A stretch of DNA of 44,571 bases, the filler included, from Catajapyx aquilonaris (lineage: Eukaryota), in NCBI GenBank assembly GCA_000934665.2. It is 2 parts of 2 records of this genome, joined end to end, with 100 filler letters (N's around TTAATTAATTAA, not from the genome) between each part and the next. Parts side by side here need not be neighbours in the genome. Positions count along the whole stretch, not along the records: positions 21,855 to 44,571 come from JYFJ02005990.1; 1 more part is not named here. One strand, 5' to 3'. This document shows, piece by piece, positions 21,755 through 42,432 of the stretch; position 1 is the first letter of the stretch; each line of letters opens with the position of its first letter. A program made the translations under genes and the position numbers. Under the pieces are notes generated by a model. The model searched no databases. It saw only the letters and a program-made list of their open reading frames with translations, and was not told where the DNA came from.

Positions 21755-21854
21755 NNNNNNNNNNNNNNNNNNNNNNNNNNNNNNNNNNNNNNNNNNNNTT
21801 AATTAATTAANNNNNNNNNNNNNNNNNNNNNNNNNNNNNNNNNNNNNNNNNNNN
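21755..21854. other. Artificial assembly gap/linker
   Basis: Exactly 44 N + TTAATTAATTAA (stop codons in all six frames) + 44 N = 100 bp, a typical synthetic contig spacer. Confidence 0.95.
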
Positions 21855-21985
21855 ACCAATTAATCTGGCCATCATGGTGCAGAAGCAAGATATCATTACG
21901 TCATGAAATGATTTATTAAACAGAAATGTTGAAAATCAATTATAATGGTGGCATAATTTACTAACTAAACTCCTCTTTGTTTCAG

Positions 21986-22564
21986 TGTTTTACCAAGTGC
22001 GTGTTAGAAGATATGGGAACTGTAAGTAGCCTACACTAGCTCATCAATATACTGATGTTACAATTGACATAATACTTCTTGTAAAATGTATTGTATACTT
22101 GTCTATTTGTAAAATGTATTGTATACTTGTCTACTTGTAAAATGTATTGTCTACTTGTAAAATGTATGTCTACTTGTCTACTTGTAAAATGTATTGTCTA
22201 CTTGTCTACTTGTAAAATGTATTGTCTACTTGTCTACTTGTAAAGGTATGTGTTTGTCTACATAGATGGACCAGTTTGGACGACTCCTTCCCATGAAAGT
22301 GGCAAACTTGATTGCACCAGGTGAAGACGAAAGGTCATACCGAGCAGTACTTGGAAGCGCCTTCAGCTCATGTCTTGACCAAGGTGATTAATATTAATAT
22401 TATTAATAATAAAAGTATCAATATTACAAGTATATTGTTCTTGCACTTTTGAAGTGGAAGAGGAAATGTCTGAATCTGCTTCGATGGAGGAAGATTCCTG
22501 CGAGCTGGTGAACAGAGTGGTGGACTGCGCAGGACCCGCAGTGGCGCAACAATGTTCCTACTAA
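21986..22564 (+). CDS. OBP-like gene A, 5'-partial (signal-peptide and C1 exons not found, probably lost at the assembly gap)
   Basis: Exons 21986-22021 (CFTKCVLEDMGT), 22266-22383 (MDQFGRLLPMKVANLIAPGEDERSYRAVLGSAFSSCLDQ) and 22455-22564 (VEEEMSESASMEEDSCELVNRVVDCAGPAVAQQCSY*). GT-AG introns keep the frame. Shows C-X3-C and C-X8-C-X8-C. AATAAA at 22624. Confidence 0.8.
22073..22250 (+). repeat. Intronic minisatellite in gene A
   Basis: About 6 imperfect copies of CTTGTAAAATGTATTGT(C/A)TACTTGTCTA. Confidence 0.9.
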
Positions 22565-23003
22565 AACAATGCTTGTTTGCATTAAAATGTGTCTAGTATA
22601 TATTGCTAAAACCTACAGATCTGAATAAACTAAAAATTTGACTAATATTGACCTTCATTTTTGGAAAATCAAAAAACTCGCCGCATGAAATAGTACCACT
22701 GTTGTCCGCATGGCCCTAAAAGTGGCAGTAGTGTTCAGAGAGGGAGGATGCGCCATCTATGTGAGACGTGCGGTACTACATGGACAGTGTTGCCAAGTTT
22801 TGCCCATAATAAAATATTGCACTCTATATGCTGATGTCACATTATTAGTAACAACTGCTTACCTCATCCGAATTATCTGGTTCTATTTTGCGTGCAAAGA
22901 TGATTGAACGTGTATTTATACCGTTTCCGGCATGAGTGCAGCGGATATGTTTGGCGAGGGTTATTGCAACTCTGGGTTGAGTGCACATGGGTTGTCTGCA
23001 AAA

Positions 23004-23987
23004 ATGGTGGTTTCTACAATTACTCTGTTTGTGTTGCTGTTAATAGCTGCGACACAAGCTGCCAATGACGTAGGTTACCAGTACCAACTATTATTAATGT
23101 GAAATGATGTTGACATAATATCATAACAGACACTAAAACTTATTGCTATGTTTTATTGCAGGATATTGAGGACTATTGCAGATTTTTGAACTACCAATCG
23201 CAATCAGTCGAAAAAGCCAAGAGTGACTGCGCTTTTTCCAACAATGACGTACATGTTTTTCCAGTGATCTTAGCAATTAATTTACACAACTCACTAATCA
23301 AGGCCTTACTTTCAGTGTAACCTGAGATGCATTTTTCTTAACCTGAAAGTGGTAAGTACAACATTTGCTAAATTGAGTTATCTCAACATTTTAAAAAGAC
23401 ATTGCTAACTATTGTCCTGCGAATATTTTGGCATAAAATGATATTATGTGGACAGCTGGATGCAGAAGGATGGCCTGTCCCGATAAGAGTCGCTGCAGAG
23501 TATGCCCCTGGCGAATCCAACTGGATGCTTCGAGAAGCCCTCCTAAAATACTACGAAATGTGTTTAAATCAAGGTACAATATCTGACTAATCTAATCAAC
23601 ATTTTGCACCCCATTAACTTCACAACAAAATTAATTCCATGGAGCAGTCCCGATCACGAGAGGTCGAGACACAAACGATTGCACTAAGCTGTGGCCAGTG
23701 ACTCAATGCGTGGACCAAGCATTGTTGTATGTAAGTACTATAGCAGCAGCCATATAAGCCAAACCAGGACAAACACGCAAACAAACAAACATTGTCTTTT
23801 ATATGTAAGTTATATAGAAACCTAATAAAACCGGGGTGACTTCAAATACATATAGTTAATTTGTGAAGCATACGAACTAACTTGTAAGACATTTATTAAT
23901 TTCATTTACACAAATGATGTGTTATTAAGTAAATAACGCTCTAATGACATTTTAAATTTTCAGGAATGTAATGGCTACAATAAGTGA
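23004..23987 (+). CDS. OBP-like gene B, secreted 8-Cys protein, 137 aa, 6 exons
   Basis: Exons 23004-23069, 23162-23248, 23316-23351, 23456-23573, 23648-23730, 23964-23987, all GT-AG. Protein: MVVSTITLFVLLLIAATQAANDDIEDYCRFLNYQSQSVEKAKSDCAFSNNDCNLRCIFLNLKVLDAEGWPVPIRVAAEYAPGESNWMLREALLKYYEMCLNQVPITRGRDTNDCTKLWPVTQCVDQALLYECNGYNK. Hydrophobic signal peptide; AATAAA at 24016. Confidence 0.88.
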
Positions 23988-24244
23988 AGCTGTCATTGAA
24001 GAATTGTGATAGACAAATAAATGTCAAAAGTGACGGAAATCCGTGTACATTTTTGTGGATGACCCCACCTTCTCTCTCTATATAGTGTTGATATTATAGT
24101 TTTGTTCTGTGAGCGATAGTTCTTGTCTGATCAAACCGGAAGCAGGCTTGGAGCATCCCCTGATTGGATGGAGACTTTAAATCCGATGTGCACATCCGCA
24201 AAGGCATCCTTTCCAGTGGAAATCCTATTGAAAGTCAGACAATT

Positions 24245-25044
24245 ATGATGCGCTGCCTGCTATTCTTCGCTCTGTTGGCCGCCTGCGCCTTCTCGGCTGC
24301 TGAGGTCAAAGTTCATATATGCTGCACCCGCTGAATATTTGCCACTATAATGTTGTCTCTCATGTACAGGCTGGAACTTGCGCTTACGCACAATACGTCC
24401 CAGAAAATGCCCAGAACGCACAACACGAGTGCCTGAGCAACAGCCCAGAGGTTAGTCTTTCACTTATTATTATTATCATAATTATAATAATTATAATAAT
24501 AACAATTATTATTATTGAATATTAATTGTTAAAATATAACAATTATTTTATCGTTTTCAGTGCTATGACAGATGCCTTCTGGAGAAGCTGAAGTCTGTAA
24601 GTGTGTCTGCTCTACGGCGTCTAAATATTGTAATATCCTGCTGACACTTCAATATTGTTAATTATGAATTTACTGCTAATTGTAGCTGGATAACGAAGGC
24701 TGGCCCCGCCCACGCAAGTTCGCAGACCACTTCATCCCAGAGGCTGCCAACCCCCGATTGCACGAGCTCCTTCGCAGAAGCTTCAGACACTGCCTGCCCA
24801 ACGGTGAGTCCTGATTTGGCCATATTTGGTCTATAATTTGTTTAATTTTTTTCTCCTCTTCTAATTAATTGTAGTCGATCTTCGATCCAACATGGAGAGC
24901 GATTGCGTCACCGTTCAGTCCATCTCTTCCTGCGCATGGCGTGCTTTCTTTAAGGTTTGAAATATTTCAATGTACCATACTGTACACGTCCGAAATTCAG
25001 TTTGTTTACTACATTCTCCCACCTTTTTTTTTCAGGAATGCTAA
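24245..25044 (+). CDS. OBP-like gene C, secreted 8-Cys protein, 127 aa, 6 exons
   Basis: Exons 24245-24304, 24370-24450, 24561-24596, 24686-24803, 24875-24954, 25036-25044. Protein: MMRCLLFFALLAACAFSAAEAGTCAYAQYVPENAQNAQHECLSNSPECYDRCLLEKLKSLDNEGWPRPRKFADHFIPEAANPRLHELLRRSFRHCLPNVDLRSNMESDCVTVQSISSCAWRAFFKEC. AATAAA at 25058. Confidence 0.9.
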
Positions 25045-25694
25045 ATACTTCCATGAGAATAAAGGCGTCCGTGTGTAATACCTGATTTGCATTGAAATAA
25101 ATATCACATTTAGCACAATTAGACATTGGTACTTTTCATTGCGTGCGACTGGTGCATGTTGTTTCAGGAATTATTACTGAAGGATCAGGAGACGTCTGGA
25201 ATAATATAAAAATTGACTCATCACAATTATCGAAATGTAATTTGTATGTAAGTTATAATAAAATCTCACTGTTACAAACGCATACGGCCATCGACTGTAA
25301 CATACCATAAATAAAGCTTAAACTCGCATATTACAGATTTTATTGGCTCCCAAATGGTGCAGTTACTGCAGTCATTATTTGTCCGAAAATTTTCACACAG
25401 TACCACCGAAGCTTCAGCTAGTTATCTCTGTACAGTGTGTAGCCTACTGTACATAATTTATCCAAAAATTAATATAGTTTTTTCGTTTCACTATAGTGAG
25501 CAGTAGAGCCTATAGTTCAGACTCTTTATTTGAAGATTTGTTACGAAAAATGTTTAAAACAATAAATTGCTGGCCATCATTATTTGCAATTTCGGACTTT
25601 AGATAAGAGTTGTTGTACCGGATGCGAACTTTTATAGGCTGGATGGGTTAGTCGCACTTTATCGAAATGTCGTGGGCGAGAAAACTGTATCTCT

Positions 25695-25771
25695 AAACCG
25701 GAAGCAGCAGTCCCACCCACCAACCCGATTGGATTAATTAATTAACTGTCACTTAGGTCATCAGATATAAA
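25695..25771 (+). promoter_or_regulatory. Gene D proximal promoter: ETS-like CCGGAAG, inverted CCAAT, TATA
   Basis: AAACCGGAAGCAG...GATTGGAT...TATAAA. The first two blocks recur upstream of gene C (24133-24169). Confidence 0.55.
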
Positions 25772-25843
25772 GCATTATGTTGCTTCCTGACACTCCCGGA
25801 TTCACCATCGAGTGTCTCACACAATAATTATTATTGTCGAGAG

Positions 25844-26056
25844 ATGCGTTTGCTGCTACTGTTTGTACTGGCCGTTGTCGGCTTCAGCCTTCCAACAGCT
25901 CAGGTAAAATTGTACAGAATATTATTATCACATACTTTATCTCACACGTTGATTTATGCCAGGCCAAAATATGCAATTACATCGATTACGTCAACCAAAG
26001 GACCAAGGACACAAACGCATTCTGTATGTCCCAGAATTCCCATCAGGTACTACTAT

Positions 26057-26153
<97 letters not shown>

Positions 26154-27039
26154 CTTTTCGACAGTGTGTGCCAAAGTGCGTCCTGAAAGATTTGGGAACG
26201 GTGAGATATTTTAAATGCCAGGTTGATTATTATCATTTACGTAATGGAAAGTTAATTTTGATGATTTAAATTTTTTTAGTTGGATCAACATGACTGGCCT
26301 AAGGCAAGAAAAGTTGCGGACAATTTTTTCCCTGAAGCGGTCCATCCCAGATTCCACGAGAACCTTCGTCGATCTTTCAAACACTGCACACCTTCTGGTC
26401 AGCTGTTCATTCAAATTATCCAATTTTTAATTAGAGCGACTAATTTCACATTAAGCTGCTGATTACTCAGGGAGAGTCAATGGGATTTAAAATATTCGGT
26501 CTAATTGGCTGTGAATTAAAATTAATTTTTAGATTATGCTAATGGCCCATTGACTAATGAAATTAGCCTGACAAATAAGCAGCTTAGTGTCCTTAAATAC
26601 ATTACCGCCATTTAAGTTTAAACACACTCTATCGGCTGTATGGGTAGCTATAAAATTTTACTCAACTTGAAACATTTTGCAGAACATGTCCGGTCCAACA
26701 TGGTGGCCGACTGTGAAACTATCCAAACAATCTACAACTGTGCATGGGAAGAATTCGTCAAGGTAAGAAAAGTCTATCGTGGAGTTGCCTACTGTATACA
26801 TTCCGAGCTACATTCATACAAACCTTTATTTAATAATGCTCTACTTTCAAAAAATTGACATAGAGACGAGTATGATTATCGCATATTTACACATGTTAAG
26901 CATATTTTATACTAGTAAAATATGCGATAGACATACTCGTCTCTGTGTCAGCGTATAGGGTATAGATAATTATTAAATTAAATTGTAGTTTAAAATGACA
27001 TTGTGTCTAATACGAATGATTATTTTCCAGGCATGCTAA
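25844..27039 (+). CDS. OBP-like gene D, secreted 8-Cys protein, 128 aa, 6 exons; closest paralog of C
   Basis: Exons 25844-25903, 25963-26046, 26165-26200, 26280-26397, 26683-26762, 27031-27039. Protein: MRLLLLFVLAVVGFSLPTAQAKICNYIDYVNQRTKDTNAFCMSQNSHQCVPKCVLKDLGTLDQHDWPKARKVADNFFPEAVHPRFHENLRRSFKHCTPSEHVRSNMVADCETIQTIYNCAWEEFVKAC. TATAAA at 25766. Confidence 0.9.
26048..26153 (+). repeat. Compound microsatellite (TAC)n(TAA)n in gene D intron 2
   Basis: Directly visible; it fills most of the 118-nt intron 26047-26164. Confidence 0.97.
26856..26950. repeat. Inverted repeat/hairpin in gene D intron 5
   Basis: The left arm TGACATAGAGACGAGTATGATTATCGCATATTTAC pairs with the right arm GTAAAATATGCGATAGACATACTCGTCTCTGTGTCA (about 35-bp stem, about 24-nt loop). 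Confidence 0.9.
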
Positions 27040-27753
27040 ACGATCGGACGTGGAAGAGAGCACAATTTTTTTAAATAATAAAAAAACAGCTTCTCAATAT
27101 CAACATTCTGGAATTGGAGTCAGAAAAATTTCATCCAACGTTTCAAATAGGAAATAATAATAGTAATTAAATCTCTCCAGAAATGGCTATGTAATGTCCC
27201 GTCGCAATAAAAGCAGACAAAGTTATGCAACCTCACCACATAATCATACATTCGCAAATTATGCTTGACAATGCGTGGGATGATGCTGACTAACACATTC
27301 TATGAATATGATAAAAATGCGTGTCAGCATCCGGTTTACGCATTCCCGCAGTCTAATTTACAGGAAATCATCTCAAGCACCTGCGACGTAAGTACCTTAG
27401 TGTTTCACTATATGAGATTGTATGTTTATGCTCGATATTTATAAAAATAATGCGCACTCAACTTCTTGTAAACACATACGATATATGATCTCGGTGCAAT
27501 TAAGGTTTGGCCCGGTGCCACGCACTGCACTTGGGTCATGTAATAATTCTCGGTACTAAATGGCGTAGAAATGCGGAACCGTAATCTGCAGTGACGCCGG
27601 AGTTACATACTGTATATGGAGAGGGCCATAAATCGCATCAAGTTGCGTCGTCAGAATATATATATACGCACCGACGCTCTTTAAATACACTACGTACTCT
27701 ACTCACTCGCTTACTTCACTTTACACCAGTGTTACGAGCAGGTCAGCATCATC

Positions 27754-29428
27754 ATGTACTTCTTCCTCTTGGCTCTTCTGCTCGGATTGTCCTGCTGCCA
27801 ACATGGAACTGCCCAAGGATATGTGAGTTGTCTGGAACAATATTGTTGGGGAGGGTCATTGTTGAGCTGACTTATAATAAGATATTAATATTTTTTAGAG
27901 CAATGGAAACGGGGACTGCCAGCATCTGAACAAGTTGCCTCATTACGTGCAGATGACGCAGTGGGATTGCCTGGCTCAAGACCCTGAAGTAAGTGCATTG
28001 ATTTTTGGTCAAGTACGTAGCACTTAGATTAAGTGAAGTATAGCAGTACGGAGGGCTACAAGTTAAGTGTTTGTAGTAGTTATAGCGATTAATTTCAGCT
28101 GCTATCAAAAATATTATGTGCTAATTTTGAGCCGTAATTGGCTACTTCAAAAGAAAATAATTGTTAGGGTGAACTATTCGTTTTTACAAATTTTTAAATA
28201 TCAGTAGTTAATATTGAAAACATTCACTACAATTATTAAGCATATTAATCATATCGGATTAAAATTTAATTCTCCAAGAATATACAGCAGCAATATTATT
28301 TCATAATTCTCGAAATAAAATTAAATTAAAGGGCGATTCTTGCAAACTGATTTATCTAATAATCTATAGAGCTATTTAGAGCTAATGGCTATTTTTAAAG
28401 CCTTTGATTAAAACAAAGTATCAAAATATATAATATTATCCAAAACATTCGCTACACAATGTAATCATAATCTTATCGGATTAAAATTGAATTCTCGATG
28501 AATATGTACTTATACAAAGTATACAGTAATGATTTTTTTTACTAAAAATGTTTCAATTAAAGGGCGATTCTTGCAAACTGATGCGGTCCTTTCACTAATT
28601 AATCTACAGCTATTTAGAGCTAATTGTCATTTTAAAGCTTCTGATTCAGATGACGTTGCTGCTTGTGAATTATTTCAACTTCTGAATAATTACGATGTGA
28701 GGTTAACCTTCAGTGTGCCATAATATTGTTTGGGAAGTCTACTGAATCATCCTTATGGACGAAACAACATACTGTGCACATGAATAACAAACCATTCACA
28801 TGCTTGTGACGTAACTCTTCGTTACGAAACTGTTCAGATCCTAATTAAATCTGACAAGTCAGAAAATAAACTGTCACCTTTTGTACCCCCAACAATTCTC
28901 GACAAGTAAAATGCCAGACAATTACTTTACATGCTTTCTGTTGTACTTCCAGTGTCATGACAAGTGTGTGTTCAAGAGACTTGGCGTGGTGAGTTATATT
29001 TTTAGATCAGCAAGTGCATCATAAATGCTAATAATTTTCGCCACATTTTGCACTAGATGGATGAAACCGAATGGCCCAAACCATGGGAAATTGCGAAGGA
29101 ATTTGCAGGAGGAAATGTCAACATGCGTCTGTTCAACTCGGCTTGGAGGGCTTTTGCTCACTGCAGTCCTTCCGGTAAATTCATTCAGAAATTTAATTTA
29201 AAAAAATTATGATTAAAAAAAACGAGCTAATTGAATTTTTCTGCAGATGATGCTCGAAGAGGCAGAAGGAGCACATGTCAAGATATTCTGACTTTGGTTC
29301 TGTGCGCTTGGCAGCAAATGTACCAGGTATGACCCTTTCTTTATTAACTGCGTATACTTTGGGCAATGCAATCAACATGTACTAATTACTCGCCTTAATT
29401 TTTGCAGGATTGCGGAGCAGCAAAATAG
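27754..29428 (+). CDS. OBP-like gene E, secreted 8-Cys protein, 137 aa, 6 exons
   Basis: Exons 27754-27822, 27899-27988, 28953-28988, 29057-29174, 29247-29326, 29408-29428. Protein: MYFFLLALLLGLSCCQHGTAQGYSNGNGDCQHLNKLPHYVQMTQWDCLAQDPECHDKCVFKRLGVMDETEWPKPWEIAKEFAGGNVNMRLFNSAWRAFAHCSPSDDARRGRRSTCQDILTLVLCAWQQMYQDCGAAK. Confidence 0.88.
28218..28647 (+). repeat. Tandem duplication of about 200 bp in gene E intron 2
   Basis: ATCGGATTAAAATT, AATTAAAGGGCGATTCTTGCAAACTGAT and AGCTATTTAGAGCTAAT each occur twice in order (about 28218-28410 and 28443-28647). Confidence 0.8.
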
Positions 29429-30770
29429 GCATGTTGGAGGGCAACACAAGACTTAAGACTGCATTTACTGAGCTGTTTACTATAATCGCAACATAATGGC
29501 AATAATTTTAATACTCATTTTTAATATACATGCGATTCTGCCAAGCAATGATTTATGCTTGATAATGTTTAAAAAATGTGCTTATTACGTGGGTATTCCC
29601 CAGGGCAATATGCTGACATAACAGTGCAAGTAACACTATTAAAGTTGTTCACTCCCAGGGGAAGTCGGCGCATGTACATAAATTGTCCACTTCAAGGCTG
29701 CCAAGTACTCGTATAATAATAATTATAAATAACCTCGCACTGTAAGTTTCACCAATAAAAATTCATTGCATGTCATTAGACCGCATATTGAGTTTTTGTT
29801 TGAGAATGAAAACGATTTTGTTTCAGGAGTTCAATTTGGATGTGTTTGGGAAATTCGACTTGCCTTTCTGATTGTTGCATGATGTTGTCTACATGAAAAA
29901 TTAATGTTGTGACACTTCCACGGGAAGAAACTTTCCGAATTTTCCCAGAAATTTATTTTCCAAGACTTAAAACAGGTTTAAAGGACTGTAGAGGAGAATA
30001 ATTATCAATTTACATTTAATTATTATTCGCATGCTGTACAGTGTACTGCAGCTGCAGTTTACTCATGGAAGTAAAAAAGAGTATGAAATTAGCCATTCAA
30101 ATTCATTTTTTTTGATCTCAAAGATTTCTGTCACATGGTGTCGTAAGAGTGTGACGTGTCACTGTGTATAAAACAAGTCCAAGATCACAGGAATGTCGCG
30201 CGTGCAAATAAAATGTGTCCTCAGCCATATCCGTTTCAAATTTGTGTGTTTAAAATCAATTCGCGTCGCGTCGTCTGTCGCCTGATCTCTTTTTTTTCGC
30301 GAAATGACGAGAGTTTTTTTTTTTTAAAAAAAGAGAGACGTTGCGAAATGATTGGGTTACGCCCTTGGCCCATTGAATTAAGTAGCGACCTTGGCATTGC
30401 GTAATTTTTGAAGATGAACCAGCACACTCCCCCAGCCATAAATTTAGACAGCAATAAACCCATTCCTTCATCTTCATCTTTTTTTTTAAAAGTCACTTCC
30501 GCGCCAGAAGGATATGGGACCCAAGAATGGCGTGTTTGTTCCCGGTGTGTGTATATGCCAGCTTCTTCATCTCATGACACATACACGTACACATTGCGCT
30601 TGTTACCCCCTAAACGAGACGCTCATTAACTTTTTATGGGGGTTGAAATTGCGACGTTACTGCTTCTTACTGGCTCAGGACAGGAAATCAACATAATTAC
30701 GTGACACATCAACAATGTCCAGAAATTGATTATATAATCTTAATGGCATAAAAATATTTTTACAAAGTCA

Positions 30771-31228
30771 TGCTTGAAGTTCAAAAAAACATGACACAAA
30801 TTTTTGCAAGTCTAACCCAACCTAACCTACATCACAGGCGATTAAACTATTTATTCTGCAATTAGTGTATATACCTTTCATATTTTCTCATTCGTAATCT
30901 AATGTAGCGTACTATTGTCTGTCAGAAAATATTTAAAATTCAATCCTAATATTCTTCCCATAACAACGGCCAAAAATGATATTACCAATTATTTACAAAA
31001 TGCTGCAAATATTTGTTACAAATAATTACTGCTTGAAGTTCAAAAAAAACATGACATTTTGCAAGTCTATAATCTAATAAGATTTCCATCACAGTTGATT
31101 ACTCTCTAATTCTTCTGCAATTAGTGTCTACCTTTCATATTTCTAATTCGTAGTCTAATGTACTATTGTCTGTCCGAAAAATTTTAAAATTAAATCCTAA
31201 AGTTCTTCCCCATAAAACGGTCAAAAAA
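30771..31228 (+). repeat. Direct duplication of about 200 bp upstream of gene F
   Basis: 30771-30976 and 31030-31228 share TGCTTGAAGTTCAAAAAAACATGACA, CTGCAATTAGTGT, TACTATTGTCTGTC and AATCCTAA-TTCTTCCC. Confidence 0.85.
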
Positions 31229-31407
31229 ACAATGAATGAAATTTCCAGGAAAAGAATATGCAAAAAAATGGCGAGAAATTAACCCCCGTGTAGTTTTTTG
31301 CACTGACACGAATGTGGCGAGTGTCTCTTCCCACAACCTTGAGAGAATTGTATGCACAAAAAAAAGGTGTAAATTTTAATCCAAGAGACGATGCGGAACA
31401 GCATCCG

Positions 31408-31414
31408 TATAAAA
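31408..31414 (+). promoter_or_regulatory. TATA box of gene F
   Basis: TATAAAA lies 59 nt upstream of the ATG at 31467. Confidence 0.6.
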
Positions 31415-31466
31415 GCAAGGAACGAGGTGGAAAAGGAAGAAAAGGTGTGAAAGGACAGCTCCAAAG

Positions 31467-32488
31467 ATGATCAAGGCCTTCCTCATCGCTCTTTGCTTCC
31501 TGCAAGTCGTCCTGGTAAATCAAATTTAATTGTCTTACATTGGTTTTTTTGTACAAACAAATAGGGTAAAAACATTCTTCTCTCAAAACTGGGTACTCAT
31601 TGTACTGTACATATAATAATTATTTTTAACTGTGATTTTTTCCCCTTTCAAATAAGGCTGATGATGATCACAAGTGCTGGGATGAATCTAAAGTTCCGGA
31701 TGATTGGAAGGCAATAGATCAGAAATGCGGAACTGATAACGATAACGCCGACGAAGTTACTGCGGTAAATTATTTTTAAATAGGTTATTAAATTCGCACA
31801 ATAATTTGAATATTTTTTGCCGACTCAACGCAACGGGCTAAACCGCACATAATAAATAATAAAAATCTCACTTTCTTCTTCAGTATGTCAACCCCTTCAC
31901 AAATTGCCTCATGATGTGTGTTAAAATATTTTACTGAAACTGGCAGTTAAATTATTATTATGCAGTTTATAATATCATGTTAAAATACACAGCGGGACAG
32001 GGTTAAAAGGGGTGATAATAATAATGATAATAACAAACATTTCGGTTTTCAGTGCCAGTTCAAGTGCTACCTGGAGAATCATAAGCTGGTAAGTTACTAA
32101 CAGTCAAACTCGAGTTTGACTGCAATTTTAATAATAATTAATATTTGAAACACTTTCAGGTGGATGATTCAGGTCATCCCTTACTGGAAAGATTCATTGA
32201 AACGATGAAATTGGCTGCATATGATCAGTACAGGGATCAATTAAACGCAGCAACTAAGACTTGCTTGGACCAAGAAGGTCAGTAAAATTAACCAGGATGG
32301 TCACTAACGGCGATTAAAACATGCTCGGTTTAATTGCAGGAGAGAATGTGGATCCTGAAGGTGATGATTGTGCTGGTTACCAGGCTCTTCTGGACTGCCT
32401 GAGAACCAAGTTTCATGAGGTAAGAAGTTCATGTAATATTTGAGAAGTACATTATGTAATTTCATGTTTTTTTTTGCAGTTTTGCTAA
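31467..32488 (+). CDS. OBP-like gene F, acidic secreted 8-Cys protein, 132 aa, 6 exons
   Basis: Exons 31467-31514, 31657-31764, 32053-32088, 32160-32277, 32340-32419, 32480-32488. Protein: MIKAFLIALCFLQVVLADDDHKCWDESKVPDDWKAIDQKCGTDNDNADEVTACQFKCYLENHKLVDDSGHPLLERFIETMKLAAYDQYRDQLNAATKTCLDQEGENVDPEGDDCAGYQALLDCLRTKFHEFC. TATAAAA at 31408. Confidence 0.9.
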
Positions 32489-33148
32489 CTTGTCTTTTTT
32501 TTCGGCAACGGACAAGTAGAAGATCGGATGCCAGTAATGAAACATACCCTGTAATACTGTATCATCGCAAATAAATAATTTGCAAGTTATTCCTTATAAG
32601 TATTATTATAATGTGACTCTAACAATGTTTTTTTCCGTCTAATTTATGTAGTCTGCAGTTTTCAAACCTAATGGTTACTTTAACCATATAAAATTGCTAT
32701 TTTTCGTTAAATGGCTTCTAATTGTGGGTCCAAAAATAGTGAAAAAATTCAGACTTGTTACATACTTGTACATTGAAGGCATCTTCGGCTGCCACCCACA
32801 AATTTTTTATTACAATAAAATTTTTAAACAAGAAACAAACTATATGCTGGACGTATTAATACTTTCATTTTTGGAGTACATTTTTTATACTTTTTATGAG
32901 CATATTTCGACATTTTGGGCGTGAGTAGCAGCCACATTCATCTATACGTAATAAAAGTGATTTCATATTTTTAAATTACTTTAAAGGAGCTAACTGCGCA
33001 TAATTTGTGCAAGTATTTGTGTTGCAGCACCCTGCATATGTACCCTAAATCAGTTTACAGCCTGTTTCCGTGACGAACAACTGGCTACGGTAATTATTCA
33101 GCCGTGAAATCGGACTGAAGGACCTTCCTGTCCTGTAAAATTGAGTCT

Positions 33149-33156
33149 TATATAAA
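33149..33156 (+). promoter_or_regulatory. TATA box of gene G
   Basis: TATATAAA lies 39 nt upstream of the ATG at 33188. Confidence 0.55.
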
Positions 33157-33187
33157 GAGAGTTTTACAGGTTTTGTTGTCTGCAATC

Positions 33188-33868
33188 ATGGCTATGCGTC
33201 TCATCGGATTGTTGTTTGCTGTGGTCGCAGGCGTGCCTTTGGAAGGTCCAGGCGGCTGTCCGGATTCGATGCCTTGGATCCCTGACATTGCGCATCCGGA
33301 CTGTCCAGTCTCGGAAGAGGTAACTTGCAAACATTATTAAACCGGACATATTAACGAACATCCAAAATATTTCTAGTGCCAGCAACGTTGCCTATTGGAA
33401 CGAAAAGGACTGGCAAGTACCTCACACCAGACCATGTACAGTGTAATGTAATGAATATTGCTCTGTACCTTATCGTACCAGCTGTACTATGATGGGTTCG
33501 TGGACATCGGACGAATCTACGAGCTGATCCACGACGTCCATGTGCCCTTCAGGCTTCAGGAAATGGTCGAGTCTATGGCAGACACCTGCTTCCACATGCA
33601 CGGTAAGACTGGAAAAAAAGAGTGATTGGAAAATGAGGCCTGTCAGGTTTGACTACTGTACAAATGATATTAATGTTCGTTGAAAGGTGAGGAGGCAGGT
33701 GAATGGGGTTATATGGAAGAGCGCCAGATGAACAGGTGTGAACCTTACGAGAGATTCGCCGATTGTCTACGTACCAACAGCAAATTGGTAAGTCAACACG
33801 TCACGCTTTTTTGCATCTTCTGTAGTGTTCACATTATTATTTTTTCTCTCCAGGTGTGTCCAAAGTGA
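33188..33868 (+). CDS. OBP-like gene G, secreted 8-Cys protein, about 134 aa, 5 exons, one GC-AG intron
   Basis: Exons 33188-33319, 33377-33412 (donor CTG|GCAAGT), 33482-33602, 33687-33787 (an alternative in-frame acceptor lies 12 nt downstream), 33854-33868. Protein: MAMRLIGLLFAVVAGVPLEGPGGCPDSMPWIPDIAHPDCPVSEECQQRCLLERKGLLYYDGFVDIGRIYELIHDVHVPFRLQEMVESMADTCFHMHGEEAGEWGYMEERQMNRCEPYERFADCLRTNSKLVCPK. TATATAAA at 33149. Confidence 0.83.
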
Positions 33869-34583
33869 GCATCATTTCATCGCCAGCCATGAATATAGTC
33901 AATGTCTGCAATAAATTTCGTTACAAGTTGTGCCCAGTCATTTTTGTGAATTATCCAGCCCCATGTGTGATGTGTAATCTACACATGTACAGTTGTACAC
34001 GCTCTGAATATTCTCCAAATGGAAATTAGTATTTTTAGGCGAATTAGGATAGACAAATAAAGCTGGTAATTATTTCAAGTAAATCGATTGCCTTTCCGTT
34101 TACTGACTTATTCCGAACATAAAGTTCATGTCTCCTACAGTATACATTACACCGAAAGTGAAACGAAAGCCACCTGGGGTCAGTACATTACTTTCACACG
34201 ACATTGTTAACAATAACGCGGAAACCTGATGTGTTATAATTCCTTCTATTTTTTTTGTGACGGGTCAAACCAACACGTAATTTTAATGCGTCCATCACGC
34301 AAGAGAGCGCAACATCACACGGCCATGCTCTTCCTGTGCGCTTTATTCAGCGGTCTTCTTGATGGACATTGTCGCCTGCCTATTGTTGCCAAGTGTCACG
34401 AGTTTAGCGGCCAACTGCCAGCTTCCGCCTTCCGTATTTGCCACATAACACCGGAGATGCACGTATCCTGATTGCAATATTTTTTTTTTAAAAAAAATAA
34501 TGAGAGCCAATAAACACCTCCTATATTAAGCCGCGCTCGATGCCAATAATTCTCACAAACTTTTAAAAAATCCGAGCTTGAAG

Positions 34584-35287
34584 ATGAAGCTTGTCGTTTG
34601 TATGTGTTTGCTGATATTAGGTGCAGATGCCGACACCTTCGAAAATGTAAGTTAAATTATGCAAATTATAATTATTTTGAAGTTTAAATCCGTTCACTCT
34701 ACTGCAATCCTGACTTCAAGCTGTTGTTAATTAATTAATTGATGTGTTGCAGTTTGAAGGATCTGGTACTTCACCCGGCCGTAATTGCGATCGAGAGTCG
34801 ATTCCTGAGGTAAGTACTGTACACAAAAGTACTTTAGCTCTGTACGTAAAATAGATAAGAAGCACTCATTTATCTTGGGTGATTTCAGTGCGCATTCCGA
34901 TGCAGCTTGATGGATACGAAACTGGTAAAAAGTTCAAGGTGAGATCAAATTGAGCCCGTGACATTTTTGTTTGTCAATCTTTCAGCTGAACTCAGAAGGG
35001 AAAGTAGACCAGACTCAAGTGGACACACAAATTCGACAGATGATGGAGGATAACAAGGCTTCTCACAAGAGAGATCTCCAGGCACTCAAAGCCTTGAAGC
35101 AATGCTCGCAAATGAAAGGTCAGAAATTATTGCTTTATAATAGTTAAAAAGTATTTTCTGCGTGTCAAAGTTCAAGCTACTGAACTATTGTGCTTTTTAA
35201 TTCACAGAAACAGTAGTAGACCCAACCCTGTCTGATTGTCAAGGATACACTCCTCTCTACAACTGTTTCATTCAACGCATGAACTAA
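34584..35287 (+). CDS. OBP-like gene H, secreted 6-Cys protein, 122 aa, 5 exons
   Basis: Exons 34584-34646, 34753-34809, 34889-34924, 34986-35118, 35208-35287. Protein: MKLVVCMCLLILGADADTFENFEGSGTSPGRNCDRESIPECAFRCSLMDTKLLNSEGKVDQTQVDTQIRQMMGDNKASHKRDLQALKALKQCSQMKETVVDPTLSDCQGYTPLYNCFIQRMN. AATAAA follows near 35330. Confidence 0.87.
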
Positions 35288-35804
35288 TACGCCCTGAAAA
35301 TTTGTTAATTAGTCTAATCGCACTTTAGAAATAAAAATTGGTCAGCCATTAACCAGGTGTCACCCAACTTCCCAACAGAATACTCTGCATTTTTCAGTGA
35401 GTTTAAACAACATGTTCCGTCAAAACGAAAGTATTTTTTTGCGCAATATAGGTCATGGTGCATTTTTGTTGTATCTTCAAATTGTTATCCTTACTCCCAT
35501 TTTTGGGGTTAAGTAATTACCCTTCCAGCCTTGCCAAAAATGCGGCTAATTATATAAAGTTACCGAAGAAGCATCACACCTTAATTGTCATGAAATAATA
35601 AGTCACGCAAATTTTGCCCCCAATATAAAATTTAGAGGCTGCAACATCCGGAGGTGTGTTTGCAGGGGGTGGCCATTGCCCAAAAAAAACCACCCACTTC
35701 CATATCACGCCCTACATATTATACACACACAAATACTGAGTGTCTGTATATATATTGGGATGCGACTCATCCTCATTGCCTCAGTAATTGTTGAAGTACA
35801 GACC

Positions 35805-37079
35805 ATGATGCTGGTGCTCGGGATTCTGTTGTGTTCAGTCTGTGTCTCTGCTGGACCAGGACAACAATGCATGGATAACATGAGGAGCAGGAGTGAGGTA
35901 TATGTTGCATTACACTCATTACCTTTTTTATCAATTAAATGAAGTAAGGTCGCTTTATCATTCAGATCATTGTTCAAAAAAAAAGTCTACTCACCCTAAA
36001 GGTAATGAGCTTAAATATTAGCGAAGAACAGTGCCAGTTTTACATCAAATTAACGGCTCAATAACCAACTTTGAAAATCCCGAGTATTACCCATCGAGTG
36101 TTCATGTCAAAGTTGCATGACCCCTGTTCGCTCATTGCGCAATGACAAAGCTGTTGAGTAACTCTAGCTGCTTCCTCCCACTATTCATGACCCATTGTCG
36201 CACTTATGGTGTAATCGTTCCGGTTTTGTGTCGTACTTGATACAATTAGGGCAGATCGAGTACAATCCTCGAATTGAGATAACAGTATTTTTTTGTCAAT
36301 AATTTTCTGGCTTTATTTCCAGTGCCTCTCTCGATGTTTGCTGGACAAATTGGGACTGGTGAGTACTACTTACTCTCGGAGTAACCTTTTTATCGCAAAG
36401 AGAAAAAAATTAATTGCACTTTCGCGTCGGTTCAATGTTATTGCTTCTGATTATTAACAGCGATGTTTTTTTTCAAGCTGGATGAAAAAGGCCGACTTGT
36501 GCAATCGATTCTGAGGCAGGAGTTTCCTAATTATTGGGAACCGCCAACTACAACCGGGGCACCTTCTGACACCGTGTCGCTGTCAGAGGTCGTGACCTGC
36601 CTCAAAGAAGAAGGTGACCAAAGGGAAAGTGATACTGAGCCCACATTAAATCAAAATGAATATTTTGCTACATTTTATGAAGCATGTTCGTTCTGACGGT
36701 TTTGCAAGCAGCAGAAATATTAAATCCTGATATTATTGTAATATTAAGATAATTATGCCTACCACTTTGATCTGTAATCAAGTGATTCGCATGTGCGTCT
36801 TTGGGTTGGCAATGTTAATGTTGCTTCCTGCCTTTCAAAATTTTACTATAGCTTCAACTGTCTGTTACAGCCAAAGTGGTTCAGACGGAGAAGCTGACGT
36901 GCAAGGACTACGACAACCTGATGTACTGCACCATACTGCATCCCAAGGAACAATATTACGACGAATACGACACAATCGAAAGCGGCGATCCACAACCTGG
37001 TGTCCATCTCGCAGGAAGTGTATCAGCTCAAAACAACAAACATATTTTTCTTCCGCCTCTGATACTACGACGGCATTAG
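35805..37079 (+). CDS. OBP-like gene I, secreted 6-Cys protein with a 49-aa C-terminal tail, about 157 aa (169 aa if candidate exon 35966-36001 is used)
   Basis: Exons 35805-35897 (MMLVLGILLCSVCVSAGPGQQCMDNMRSRSE), 36323-36358 (CLSRCLLDKLGL), 36478-36613 (LDEKGRLVQSILRQEFPNYWEPPTTTGAPSDTVSLSEVVTCLKEE) and 36871-37079 (AKVVQTEKLTCKDYDNLMYCTILHPKEQYYDEYDTIESGDPQPGVHLAGSVSAQNNKHIFLPPLILRRH*). TATA-like run near 35748; AATAAA immediately after the stop. Confidence 0.8.
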
Positions 37080-37494
37080 ATGACAAATAAACTTACCTCT
37101 TAACAGGAATATTTATGTGAATGGTGCACTATTCTGTATAAACCGACAATCAGAAACTATCAGTTTGAAATAAATTAAGGTTGGCTCCCTGGACCTGGGC
37201 ATTCCTACACATAAAGAATTGAAGTTCTCACAGTAGTTACGTCAAAGGAAACTATCATTTTAATAGCCAGTTTTTTGACCTAGCCCGACTGAATAAAGGA
37301 TTGAATGGACAACAATGGTGCGAGGAAGTCACTGCACAGTTTCCCATAGGAGGAGAACAGATGAAGCATGATCTCGTGTGACTTGGGTGCATTTAGATGA
37401 GAAATTTTACGAGTTGTCATTAACTAGATACAAAAGAGGGTTTATGATGGCCACAGGAAATGCGCAATTTTTTATATAAAAAAACGCAGGTTAC

Positions 37495-37526
37495 TATAAA
37501 GATCAGTGTCGCACACTATGTCATTG
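37495..37526 (+). promoter_or_regulatory. TATA box plus initiator-like element of gene J (equivalents at 39595 for K and 41647 for L)
   Basis: CTATAAAGAT is conserved in all three paralogs. TCA(T/C)TGTCAC follows 26 nt after the TATA in J and K and 35 nt after it in L, then GAGCAACATG at the start codon. Confidence 0.7.
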
Positions 37527-37551: not shown

Positions 37552-38004
37552 ATGAAGGGTTTGCTCTTGATGTCTCTGGTTCTGATCGCCATTCAGTCTG
37601 TGGTCCATGCGCAGGGCGAGGAGGGTAAGGTCGGTATTGCCTAATCAAAATACTCCCAAAATATGAGAATAATATTTTTTCCTCTTATTAATTTTCTCAC
37701 AAGTGTTTGCTATTACTTGTAGTGTCCAGAGCAAAGAGTGATATCTTCCGTGCTTGCGAGTTGCATGAACAGAAAACCCCGAACTAAGCGAGGATTACCA
37801 CCCGAAATGGCCGCGAAATTTACTCCTGTAAGTTGGAAATCTCTAAAGCCCATGCCTTTATAATCAGATTAATATTATATATATAATAATTAATAATATA
37901 TATCATTATAAATTCCAGTGCTCCCTCAAGTGCCTAATGAAAAGGTTGAACCTGGTAAGGCCTACTGGATGTGAACATTTTGCACCACTTCTAATAACAA
38001 TAGC

Positions 38005-38090
<86 letters not shown>

Positions 38091-38374
38091 GTCATTAAGC
38101 TTGACGGCAATGGTCGCATGCTGAAGGAGAAAGCATTGGCACTGATGGACGACTGCAGCAAACAGTACAAAATGTTCGAGGATGTACTGAAGCAGGCTAT
38201 GGCGTGTGCCGATGCACATGGTAACAATTAACAGGACAATATATTGTACCTTCAGTTACGAGTACTAACATTGCGTTCGTTTCATTTTCAGCCGAGGAGG
38301 TAGACGGGAATGAAAAGGACCCCTGCCCTTCCTTCCGGGGCTACAGAAGCTGCGTATTTGATGTGCCCAACTGA
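37552..38374 (+). CDS. OBP-like gene J, secreted 8-Cys protein with an internal RTKR site, 140 aa, 5 exons
   Basis: Exons 37552-37629, 37723-37827, 37919-37954, 38100-38220, 38292-38374. Protein: MKGLLLMSLVLIAIQSVVHAQGEEGKCPEQRVISSVLASCMNRKPRTKRGLPPEMAAKFTPCSLKCLMKRLNLLDGNGRMLKEKALALMDDCSKQYKMFEDVLKQAMACADAHAEEVDGNEKDPCPSFRGYRSCVFDVPN. TATAAA at 37495. Confidence 0.9.
38005..38090 (+). repeat. (TTA)n microsatellite, gene J intron 3
   Basis: Directly visible. Confidence 0.97.
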
Positions 38375-39020
38375 ACTTTGTGTAACAAGAAGAAGGATAA
38401 AAGCGGATAAAATAATTATGTAAACCTAATTATAAAGTACAGCGGGACCCACCAATATTACGCCAACTGCAATCATTACAGCCTCCTGTAACCAGCATAT
38501 ACTGAGAGCTAATAAACTATTTTTATCAGCATGCGAATGGATTTCACTAGCCAAGCAAATCATGAAGCTACAGCTCACTGTTTTATCCATAGAGTGCAAT
38601 TTTATCAAAGCGGTTTTATCACAGTTTCAACAATAGCAGTAGTGATGATTTACGATGGTCAGTAAAGAAAAAGACAAACAGACTAATGAATAAATAACTA
38701 AATAACTACATTAGACAGAAAGGAAGGAAGAAATCAAATGATTTGGATTCTGGAGGAAACAATTATTCTGAATTATCCTAAAAATTGCACAATTAAAATG
38801 GAGAATTTATCCCTTCAATATGGTCGCTGATGGGAATTACAAAAATATATTCTAAACCTACATGACTGCCATGAAATTCTTATTGTTCAATAAAATAAAT
38901 AATTATTGCACTATAAAGGCGTGGCCTGCACAAAAATGATGTGGTCAAGTGAGTCACATTGGCAAAATATTGTCACGTAATTGACCACATAATCAGGGAA
39001 CAATCAGGGAACAATGCTGT

Positions 39021-39264
39021 ATTGAGATAACAGCTAGTTCTAAGCAATTTTCTGCTTTATTTCCCGTGCCTCTCTCGATGCTTGCTGGATAAATTGGAAC
39101 CTGGTGAGTACTATACTCTGGGAGTAACCTGCAAATTTTTATCGCAAAGAGAAAAATTAATATTGCACTTTTGCGTCGGTTCAATATTGGCTAAATTATT
39201 GCTTCGGATTAACTGTGACGTTGGCTTTTTTAAAGCTGCATGAAAAAGGTCCGACTTGTGCAAT
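39021..39264 (+). pseudogene. Pseudogenic fragment of a gene-I duplicate
   Basis: Homologous to about 36272-36505. The micro-exon copy 39067-39103 (CLSRCLLDKLE...) has its acceptor changed from AG to CG and a 1-nt insertion (37 nt). The next intron is retained. The next exon is cut after about 29 nt (39236-39264) and fused to sequence homologous to the gene-J upstream region (37170 onward). Confidence 0.85.
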
Positions 39265-39651
39265 AAATTAAGGTTGGCTCCCTGGACCTGCTGGATATTC
39301 CTATAGATACACATAGAAATGCAGTTCTCACACTAGTTACGTCAAAGGAAACCATCATTTTAATGGCCAGTTTTTTTGACCTAGCCCGACTGAATAAAGG
39401 ATTGAATGGACAACAATGGTGCGAGGAAGTCACTGCACAGTTTCCCAGAGAACAGGTGCAACATGATCTCGTGTGACTTGGATGCATTTAGGTGTCGAAA
39501 TTTTACGAGTTGTGATTAACAAGATGCAAAAGAGGGTTTGTGATGGCCACAGGAAGTGCGCAATGGTCGCATTTAAAAAAGAAGCCCAGGTTACTATAAA
39601 GATCAGTGTCGCACACAATGTCATTGTCACAGCTGACGACATCAGAGCAAC

Positions 39652-40065
39652 ATGAAGTGTTTGCTCATAATGTCTCTGGTTCTGATCACCATTCAGTCTG
39701 TTGTCCATGCACAGGATGAGGAGGGTAAGGTCGGTATTGCCTAATCAAAATACTCCCAAAATATCAGTATAATATTTTCCTCTTTCGTAGTGTCCAGAGC
39801 AAAAAGTGTTAACGAACGTGTTTGCGGGATGCATGAGCAGAAAACCCCGAACTAAGCGAGAAATACCTCCCGACGTAACCGAGAAATTTACTCCTGTAAG
39901 TTGGAAATCTCTAAGCCCATGCCTTTATAATCAGATTAATAATATATTATTAATATAATATATATAATTATTCCAGTGCGTCCTCAAGTGCTCAATGAAA
40001 AGGTTGAAACTGGTAAGGCTTGTTGGATGTAACATTCTGAACCATTTCTAATATAACATTGAGTC

Positions 40066-40140
<75 letters not shown>

Positions 40141-40437
40141 GCTTGACGACAATGGTCGCATGCTGAAGGAGAGAGCATTGGCAATATTGAACGACTGCAG
40201 TAAACAGTACAAAATGTTCGAGGAAGTACTGAAACTGGTCATCGTGTGCATCGAAAGACATGGTAACAATATTAATTGGACAATAAATAATTATTTTACC
40301 TTCAGTTACTAGTGCTATTAAACATTGCGTTCGTTTCATTTTCAGCCGAGGAGTTAGACGGGAATGAAAAGGACCCCTGCCCTTCCTTCAGGGGCTTCAG
40401 AGACTGCGTAGTTGATGTGGCCAACGAAGCCCTTTAA
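39652..40437 (+). CDS. OBP-like gene K, recent paralog of J, internal RTKR site, 143 aa, 5 exons
   Basis: Exons 39652-39729, 39791-39895, 39977-40012, 40142-40262, 40346-40437. Protein: MKCLLIMSLVLITIQSVVHAQDEEGKCPEQKVLTNVFAGCMSRKPRTKREIPPDVTEKFTPCVLKCSMKRLKLLDDNGRMLKERALAILNDCSKQYKMFEEVLKLVIVCIERHAEELDGNEKDPCPSFRGFRDCVVDVANEAL. TATAAA at 39595. Confidence 0.9.
40066..40139 (+). repeat. (TTA)n microsatellite, gene K intron 3
   Basis: Directly visible; it abuts the acceptor AG. Confidence 0.97.
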
Positions 40438-41710
40438 CAAGAAGCTGATATAATTATTATGTAAACCTGATTATAAAATACAGCGGGACCCACCAATATT
40501 ACGCCAACTGCAATAATTACCAGCACACTGTGATAGCCAATAAAGTCGTTTATCAAACAATATAATATGATTTCACTCACAAGCAAATGTGGGTTCATCA
40601 TGAAGCTACAAAGGATGGCTCACTGCTTTATCAAAGTTTCAACAATAGCGTATAGTGGGTTAAGATGGTCAGTAAACAAACAAACAGACAGACAGACGAA
40701 TGATTAAATAACTAAATAAAGAAATAAAAAGAAAGAAGTTCAATGCTTTTGATTATGGAGGAAACAAGATTATTTTAAATTATCCTAAAAATGCACAATT
40801 TACTTACTGGTGGTGTGTTATACGATGGTTAGTAAACAAATAAACAAACAAACAAATTCAATGTTTTGGATTATGGAGGAAAAAATTATTATAAATTATC
40901 CTAAAAATTTGACAATTATTAAAATAAAGAATTTAGCCCTTCAATATTGCTCATTGGAATGACTTAAAATTTATTCTGAACCAATAAATGATGCAATGAA
41001 ATTATTATTGTTCAATAAAATAAAAATTGCACTAAAGGCGTGGCCTGCACAAAAATGATGTGGTCAGTCACATTGGCAAATATTGTCACGTTATTGGCCA
41101 CATAATAATCAGGGAATATCGGCAACAATGCTGTATATTGGTTGCTAGATAATTTTTTATGAGCGCAACCGAATGCGCACTTGCGTTTGTACAAAAATCA
41201 TCTTTAGGAGGCATATTTTCGTACATCGCTCAGCACCAATCTGTGTAAATTGACACATTCCTAAACCTAATTATCATTATGTAATTATTTTAGGTTTGCT
41301 CACTGATATGTACAAAATATCTGTACGTATAGCCACTAATACGATGCGAAGTTCTCACAGTAGTTGCACAACAGGAAACTATAATTTTAAACGCGTTTTT
41401 TGACATATAGCGACCGGTCTGGATGGCTAACGCCCGACTGAATAAGGATTCCACAGGAATAACGACACTGGACAACAATGGTGTCGAGGAAGGTCCGACT
41501 GCAACAGATTCGCATCGAATAGATCCTCATCGCGTGCGACTTTTTCGTTACCATTAGGCGTCGAAATCCCCTCTGGGTTACGAGATGGCGTCTAATTCGA
41601 TGACCACAGGAAGTCCGCAATCGTCACGCTTGTCCTTCCCTCCGACTATAAAGATGCAGGGAGTGACCACACAACCGGTTATCACTGTCACCAGACGACA
41701 TCTGAGCAAC

Positions 41711-42064
41711 ATGAAGGTCTTGCTCCTAACAGCTCTGGTTCTGATCGCCATCCAGTCTGTAGTAGTAGTCCATGCACAGGATGATAATAAGGTCTGTAAT
41801 GCCTATTCTTGTTCCGGACAGTACTGTGTTGTAACACATTGTTTTAGTGCCCAGATAAACAGGTGGTTATGAGCGTGGTGGGGGGTTGCTTCGCCACAGG
41901 CGGCCGAAGGAAGCGAAACATGCCTCCAGAGATGGCAGAGAGGATCACTCCTGTAAGTGTTAGCCTTTAATTTAATTTATATTTCATTAAAATAATGCAT
42001 GTCCTCGTAATAATTTCAGTGTGTCGTCAAGTGCATCATGCAGGGTCTGAATCTGGTAATTATT

Positions 42065-42142
<78 letters not shown>

Positions 42143-42432
42143 GTTCGACTCCANCTCCAGTAACAAAATGCCGAAGGAAAGAGGATTGGCCATATTGGAC
42201 GACTGCATGACACAATACCCAATGTTCGCCCCTATCCTGGAGAAGGCCAAGGAGTGCGTCGCAACTCATGGTAACAATATATTAACTGGACAATAGAACC
42301 TTCAGATGCGACTTGTAATATTGCGTGAATTATTTTTTTTCAGCCGATAGTTTAGATGGAAAAGATAAGGAGCCCTGCCCAACCTTCAGTCCCTTCAGAG
42401 AGTGTTTAATCAAGGCAGTCATGGGAGGTTAA
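41711..42432 (+). CDS. OBP-like gene L, paralog of J/K, internal RRKR site, about 143-145 aa, 5 exons
   Basis: Exons 41711-41791, 41848-41952, 42020-42055, 42144-42270, 42344-42432. Protein: MKVLLLTALVLIAIQSVVVVHAQDDNKCPDKQVVMSVVGGCFATGGRRKRNMPPEMAERITPCVVKCIMQGLNLFDS(XS)SNKMPKERGLAILDDCMTQYPMFAPILEKAKECVATHADSLDGKDKEPCPTFSPFRECLIKAVMGG. The CTCCA-N-CTCCA at 42149-42159 looks like an assembly-join duplication (in frame, +6 nt versus J/K). TATAAA at 41647. Confidence 0.88.
42066..42142 (+). repeat. (TTA)n microsatellite, gene L intron 3
   Basis: Directly visible; the last unit forms the TAG acceptor. Confidence 0.97.

Follow-up and report, generated by a model that had tools for sequence, protein, structure and literature searches.

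The DNA analysed here is a stretch of 44,571 nucleotides from Catajapyx aquilonaris (assembly GCA_000934665.2), referred to as a whole as the window, whose plus strand carries from ~21.9 to 42.4 kb an array of 12 small same-strand genes (A to L) with short introns, the members being secreted proteins of 6 or 8 cysteines that resemble odorant-binding proteins (OBPs). The last three genes, J, K and L, share at one position of their second exon a basic motif of the furin type, R-X-[K/R]-R, and the present analysis considers this motif as a candidate site of proprotein-convertase cleavage. The features on which the argument is built are these:

37552-38374, plus strand: gene J, exons 37552-37629, 37723-37827, 37919-37954, 38100-38220 and 38292-38374, encoding a 140-residue precursor.
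39652-40437, plus strand: gene K, exons 39652-39729, 39791-39895, 39977-40012, 40142-40262 and 40346-40437, encoding a 143-residue precursor.
41711-42432, plus strand: gene L, exons 41711-41791, 41848-41952, 42020-42055, 42144-42270 and 42344-42432, encoding a 145-residue precursor.
37780-37791, plus strand: RTKR of J, codons 20-23 of exon 2, with the predicted cut after 37791.
39848-39859, plus strand: RTKR of K, codons 20-23 of exon 2, from sequence reading and alignment.
41905-41916, plus strand: RRKR of L, codons 20-23 of exon 2, from sequence reading and alignment.
21986-37080, plus strand: the nine paralogs A to I, the comparison set for spacer length and cysteine co-occurrence.

Spliced by their coordinates, J, K and L are intact genes of five exons each, with open frames, AG/GT at 12 of 12 splice borders and all 8 cysteines kept; a single N, at 42154, falls within exon 4 of L. 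The precursors of 140-145 amino acids start with a hydrophobic, signal-like N-terminus that ends, as judged by eye, in VHA, the 8 cysteines follow this segment, and each protein has the small secreted character of an insect OBP. J and K offer a second in-frame junction between exons 1 and 2 (donor after 37624 or 39724, acceptor before 37730 or 39798), the use of which would drop the first cysteine and leave an odd number of 7. Scored with a donor matrix trained on 39 other donors of the array, the two options reach 4.03 and 4.64 bits. Either value is weak by comparison with the training range of 4.10-12.09, and the donor scores cannot choose between them. The junction that keeps the first cysteine was retained for J and K because L offers only that one and because the Cys-Pro codons are kept in all three genes.

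Exon 2 has 35 codons and AG/GT borders in each gene. The initial annotation placed RTKR, RTKR and RRKR at the identical codons 20-23, and both the exact coordinates and a single alignment column shared by J, K and L bear this out. Re-reading of the sequence likewise confirmed the residues said to diverge ahead of the motif (MNRKP in J, MSRKP in K, FATGG in L) and those with which the downstream part begins (GLPPE, EIPPD and NMPPE, respectively). Within the precursor, the site follows the second cysteine by 6-9 residues and precedes the third. From P6 to P2' it reads KPRTKR/GL in J, KPRTKR/EI in K and GGRRKR/NM in L, with an additional Arg at P7 in J and K; the segment contains no cysteine, P1' is Gly, Glu or Asn, and P2' is Leu, Ile or Met. 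All three proteins therefore show the R-X-[K/R]-R pattern of furin substrates and, assessed by rule alone, the core of such a substrate as well (basic P6-P2', no cysteine at P2-P6, a small or flexible P1'). The passages of PMC3281273 on the site model describe just such a basic P6-P2' core, a penalty for cysteine at P2-P6, terms for the volume and flexibility of P1'-P3', and flexible polar flanks.

The immediate surroundings of the motif suggest a loop. The spacer that holds it, from the second cysteine (b, lettering the eight from a to h) to the third (c), measures 21 residues in each of J, K and L, compared with 6, 6, 7, 6, 12, 5, 7 and 9 in those eight other genes whose exon 2 could be read. 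The motif thus occupies the most length-variable segment of the family, and such apparent tolerance of insertions and deletions is typical of a surface loop. In all three proteins the 7-mer containing the motif is the most hydrophilic of the chain, and it is bracketed by K-P (J, K) or G-G (L) upstream and by P-P downstream. The AlphaFold model of the exon-2 fragment, computed from the three-sequence alignment, consists of a helix (residues 2-15), a coil (16-26) and a second helix (27-33) at a mean predicted local distance difference test (pLDDT) score of 60.8; the exon-4 fragment is modelled as a helical hairpin with a pLDDT of 92.6. In the exon-2 fragment, at that low pLDDT, the motif falls in the coil between the two helices, as would be expected of an exposed loop. 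The loop may be accessible to solvent.

Whether the part upstream of such a cut would stay attached depends on the cysteines, which in J, K and L follow the layout a-12-b-21-c-3-d-25(27)-e-16-f-15-g-8-h, the bracketed value applying to L. The other paralogs have the same c-3-d unit, followed by a gap of 41-47 residues and then by C-13/21-C-8-C, which corresponds to the C2-x3-C3 ... C4 ... C5-x8-C6 arrangement of OBPs. Among the 8-cysteine genes with both ends readable (B, g24, g25, g27, g31 and g33), a is present together with a C-terminal cysteine located 8 residues after C6; J, K and L have a together with a mid-chain cysteine, e, and lack the C-terminal one; and the 6-cysteine genes g34 and g35 keep b without a. 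As a occurs only alongside a partner in the body of the protein, and b occurs also without a, both N-terminal cysteines should bond to the body. The fragment model has a and b at the two ends of a single predicted helix, 13 residues from each other, and if this helix is real, they are too distant to pair. The disulfides would accordingly be b-d, equivalent to the C1-C3 bond of OBPs, and a-e; with these the first helix would be stapled at both ends and would stay tethered after a cut. MAFFT leaves b of J, K and L unaligned with b of the other paralogs, and the pairing in the three proteins may be rearranged. The earlier claim of a disulfide-tethered N-terminal peptide gains from the co-occurrence of cysteines across 12 paralogs, which favours bonding to the body.

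J, K and L are best explained as recent tandem duplicates within an OBP-like family of secreted, helical proteins with 8 cysteines. Their spacer between the OBP-C1-equivalent cysteine and C2-x3-C3, unusually long, very basic and bracketed by Pro or Gly, carries a canonical proprotein-convertase site. In the mechanism we propose, the proteins would enter the secretory pathway and meet convertases of the furin type, and the loop would be cut after RTKR or RRKR late in that pathway. The first helix would be separated in this way as a piece of ~29 amino acids, or of 27 after carboxypeptidase trimming of its basic tail. (The length of about 29 residues with two cysteines originally proposed holds: it is 29 in J if the signal is cut after VHA, a boundary set by eye.) This piece would remain stapled through its two cysteines to a body of 91-96 residues, the fold being kept, so that the product would be a two-chain protein in which a newly freed N-terminus would open the second helix. 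The motif and its position, the gene models, the difference in spacer length and the hydrophilicity are established from the sequence; accessibility, cleavage, the pairing of the disulfides and whatever cleavage would do to function are inferred. Judged from the sequence, the chances that the loop is cut at all seem evenly balanced; the further step, a furin-type cut yielding the disulfide-tethered two-chain form, is a plausible prediction to be held tentatively. The broadest form of the proposal is doubtful, namely an OBP-like subfamily matured by furin into a stapled two-chain form, with proteolysis instead of ligand or pH setting the state of the protein.

A number of points weigh against processing. 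The four-residue pattern is by itself no guarantee of cleavage according to the site-model passages of PMC3281273, so that what stands of the claim of a furin-type consensus in secreted proteins is the canonical R-X-[K/R]-R combined with a signal-like N-terminus, and not its sufficiency. The exon-2 model is of low confidence and has the rest of the protein absent; the P7-P14 flank overlaps the end of the first predicted helix and contains a presumably bonded cysteine at P10, which could limit access of a protease. No relative was found in searches made at the level of exons. The three sites are, moreover, one site inherited by descent and represent about two independent lineages. With 45 of 119 aligned mature columns invariant among J, K and L, invariance at all of three given positions has a probability of ~0.05, and their conservation amounts to modest, post hoc evidence for selection, suggestive and not strong. 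In favour of processing, the R, K and R of the motif are 3 of the 12 residues, out of 35 in exon 2, that are invariant, next to 2 Cys, 4 Pro, 2 Val and 1 Thr. The comparison of J with K adds little. Their second exons show 18 differences in 105 bases, and over the coding sequence the two have 38 replacement versus 7 silent codon differences, the ratio of nonsynonymous to synonymous substitution rates (dN/dS) being 0.99, or 1.11 for the mature part, with mismatches at 60 of 423 aligned bases in exons versus 39 of 342 in introns. All cysteines, splice sites and several blocks of sequence are nevertheless kept, a pattern suggestive of diversifying selection mixed with purifying selection, or else of very recent relaxation. 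J and K do not differ at any of the 21 bases encoding R-K-P-R-T-K-R, and as their synonymous sites are unchanged there too, the identity says little about selection. It may reflect mere youth, an identical run of 21 bases being ordinary at 17% divergence, and it was discarded as evidence.

These same data invite the explanation that the site has no function: a basic run that arose by chance would have passed to three recent duplicates, and at least one of these genes may be decaying or without expression. The J-K dN/dS of ~1 and the exon and intron mismatches would be natural under it. Moreover, when the mature proteins of J, K and L are each shuffled with their composition preserved, 3-9% of trials contain R-X-[K/R]-R at some position; RGRR occurs in another loop of the paralog g27; and homologue searches retrieved no relative. 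The three reading frames, all 12 splice borders, all 8 cysteines and the TATA elements are nevertheless intact, and the informative comparison for conservation of the site is the one with L, for which dS is 0.5-0.8 and dN/dS is 0.49 (J-L) and 0.74 (K-L). L retains P4, P2 and P1 and turns P3 basic, and the motif thus survives in it despite replacement of all five residues that precede it. We regard a functionless site as unlikely. A protein that is never cut could alternatively use the loop as a basic surface patch, binding an anionic partner (a glycosaminoglycan, a membrane, the cuticle or the chorion matrix) or merely tolerating the charge, with the local structure, or a glycosylated P3 threonine in J and K, preventing the cut. 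R-K-P-R-T-K-R (J, K) or R-R-K-R (L) fits the clustered-basic motifs of such binding sites, which is one more argument against processing; the helical, hydrophobic P7-P14 flank with its cysteine at P10 points the same way, as does the wide retention of basic residues, 11 of the 20 basic positions of J being basic in all three proteins, beyond the motif too. Yet secreted proteins that expose R-X-K-R are normally cut there during trans-Golgi transit, the Pro/Gly brackets and the predicted coil argue for a flexible, accessible loop, and a binding patch has no need for the exact register of P4, P2 and P1 that L keeps while P3 changes. An uncut patch appears possible to us, though on the improbable side.

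Cleavage could also have a different outcome, in which the N-terminal piece is released as a propeptide or free small peptide, either because a and b are bonded to each other or because the first cysteine is lost through use of the alternative junction in J and K. The two similarly scored in-frame junctions of J and K would allow this, the eight cysteines may be paired differently from the b-d and a-e proposal, and the failure of MAFFT to align b of J, K and L with b of the paralogs fits as well. Against it stand the 13 residues that separate the two cysteines at the ends of one predicted helix, the restriction of L to the junction that keeps the first cysteine, the retention in all three genes of the codons for that cysteine and for the Pro next to it, and the odd cysteine number that the alternative junction leaves. 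Release is, on this evidence, distinctly improbable, and retention of the N-terminal piece by disulfides is the outcome we prefer for a protein that is cut.

The TATA elements referred to above are copies of one 11-mer, placed 59-66 nt upstream of the ATG in J, K and L; the window has 3 matches to it, a number reached in 0 of 100 shuffles.

37493-37503, plus strand: TATA-containing 11-mer of J, 59 nt before the ATG.
39593-39603, plus strand: the same 11-mer upstream of K.
41645-41655, plus strand: the same 11-mer upstream of L.

The OBP-like label is suggested by the cysteine layout, by the small, secreted and helical nature of the proteins and by their tandem array. Classic OBPs follow the formula C1-x25-30-C2-x3-C3-x36-42-C4-x8-14-C5-x8-C6. 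The core of J and K reads C1-x21-C2-x3-C3-x42-C4-x15-C5-x8-C6 and that of L is the same with C3-x44-C4, each protein having two cysteines in addition. The C2-C3 and C5-C6 spacings fit in all three proteins, C3-C4 fits in J and K and exceeds the formula by two residues in L, C1-C2 falls short by four, and C4-C5 is longer by one. The assignment of OBPs is made mainly by the six-cysteine pattern in the relevant passages of PMC4145409. An insulin-like or CHH-like hormone precursor was considered and rejected, the cysteine spacing and the 12-gene array with its shared C-x3-C micro-exon fitting an OBP-like family. Of the OBP fold assigned by the initial annotation, the OBP-like cysteine layout is what held; the fold itself found no support in Pfam, in profile searches of PDB sequences or in Foldseek, fragments being used as queries. 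Five single exons gave no Pfam match at E up to 10 (0 of 5); against PDB sequences, the exon-4 profile returned 2 unrelated matches at E ~1 and the exon-5 profile none; Foldseek with the exon-4 hairpin listed 8 weak matches to unrelated structures (E 3.7-9.4), with no OBP among them; and a protein atlas gave no usable match to exon 4. Searches for homologous proteins were similarly empty, with 6 candidates for J exon 4, none at E up to 10, no candidate for J exon 2 extended by 6 intron codons, and 4369 candidates for the 10-paralog exon-4 alignment, again none at E up to 10. A HMMER profile of exon 4 of J, K and L had 0 matches among 1.84 billion representatives, and metagenome scans with the exon-4 and exon-2 alignments gave 193 and 95 pattern matches, 0 of them confirmed. 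Single-exon queries of 35-45 amino acids have little power in such libraries, and the empty results are weak evidence for J, K and L proteins standing alone.

The array was found by a scan for a 36-nt micro-exon that encodes C-x3-C between AG and GT/GC, with the following results:

21986, 23316, 24561, 26165, 28953, 32053, 33377, 34889 and 36323, plus strand: C-x3-C micro-exons of the nine paralogs A to I.
37919, 39977 and 42020, plus strand: C-x3-C micro-exons of J, K and L.

Scan rows at 6680, 8165 and 12806 (plus strand) and at 43831 and 41432 (minus strand) were left out and rejected as family genes, these being low-complexity or isolated matches with no adjoining family exons. The gene models comprise 11 complete genes and 1 truncated by an assembly gap, all with open frames and AG/GT borders apart from one GC donor. 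When J is used as the tblastn query, J, K and L are the sole matches at E < 1e-3, which sets the three genes apart as a subfamily of their own. Two array genes, g34 (34584-35287) and g35 (35805 to ~37080), encode 6 cysteines. Six complete genes encode 8, with an extra N-terminal cysteine and a C-terminal one that mostly sits on a last exon of 9-24 nt; the truncated gene A has the C-terminal cysteine as in those six. Its 5' exons are removed by the N runs at 21756-21855, an assembly gap around a short TTAATTAATTA island. The GC-AG intron, at 33413, follows the micro-exon of the gene at 33188-33868, in which exons 1 and 2 are fused. The paralog g27 (27754-29428) is a second instance of a convertase-type motif in the array, with RGRR inside R-R-G-R-R at 29258-29269 on the plus strand; it lies in a different loop, 2 residues before the C5-equivalent cysteine, and its two closest paralogs have no basic run there.

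Some traces of the history of the last three genes are visible in their non-coding parts. Sequence identity between the J and K units is ~80% across 1.67 kb. Between the two genes lies a decayed partial copy of gene I (39011-39264 versus 36262-36505, 79% identical), consisting of the micro-exon and the start of the next exon with the acceptor destroyed, and this remnant implies that the unit duplicated from J to K began inside gene I. Perfect (ATT)n microsatellites of 74-86 nt occupy the same place in intron 3 of J (38005-38090), K (40066-40139) and L (42066-42142), the tract being kept in L although this gene is otherwise strongly diverged; similar tri-nucleotide tracts are found in introns of other array members, for example at ~26060-26150.

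Removal of the signal peptide is taken as the final maturation step of OBPs and their relatives, which are regarded as carriers of a single chain. A literature search on OBPs with furin or convertase processing found no description of a convertase-processed OBP, in line with the initial annotation, which knew of no OBP described in this way; the passages of PMC4919086, PMC3886914 and PMC11286187 that mention furin concern software pipelines or protease lists and not processed OBPs. If the proposal is true, J, K and L would provide the first convertase-processed member of the OBP superfamily and an architecture like that of 2S albumins or insulin on an OBP scaffold. A cut inside the fold would add a regulatory step that distinguishes a pro-form from a cut form. 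Bacterial expression for binding assays would in that case yield the uncut form, and mature OBP masses in proteomes might belong to two peptides, a warning for annotators. If the site is not cut, nothing remains beyond an ordinary basic loop, in a gene family that evolves fast.

Several known systems come close to the three proteins. With classic and Plus-C insect OBPs (PBP_GOBP, PF01395), J, K and L share a small secreted form, a signal-like N-terminus, helical fragments, the C-x3-C and C-x8-C hallmarks and a tandem array with fast divergence. They differ from classic OBPs in a shorter C1-C2 spacing, which is only 5-12 amino acids in the other paralogs, and from Plus-C OBPs in that their extra cysteine pair occupies other positions. 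The OBP-like proteins of chelicerates and myriapods, for which the relevant passages of PMC5381604 argue membership from cysteine alignment and modelling, are likewise distant relatives defined by their cysteine pattern outside the well-studied insects; as described there, they are Minus-C-like, without two of the cysteines, and of low copy number, compared to the 6-8 cysteines and the 12-gene array here. The convertase substrates underlying the 20-residue model of PMC3281273, as far as its site-model passages describe them, resemble J, K and L in R-X-[K/R]-R, in the basic P6/P7 of J and K, in the lack of cysteine at P2-P6, in a small or polar P1' and in the secretory route. The site in J, K and L, by contrast, lies inside a compact disulfide-rich domain, not at a pro-domain boundary, and its upstream flank is helical.

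Two-chain, disulfide-linked helical proteins made from one precursor are known in the 2S albumins (napins) and in hormones of the insulin/relaxin type. The insulin-like arrangement originally suggested is plausible as far as a cut loop and a tethered chain with 2 cysteines are concerned; it does not extend to homology, of which there is none, nor to the manner of processing, insulin losing a connecting peptide at two sites and J, K and L having one. The 2S albumins too are unrelated by homology and differ in processing enzymes and compartments, but the product expected from J, K and L, if they are cut, would be like theirs: a small chain with 2 cysteines joined by inter-chain disulfides to a larger chain with 6.

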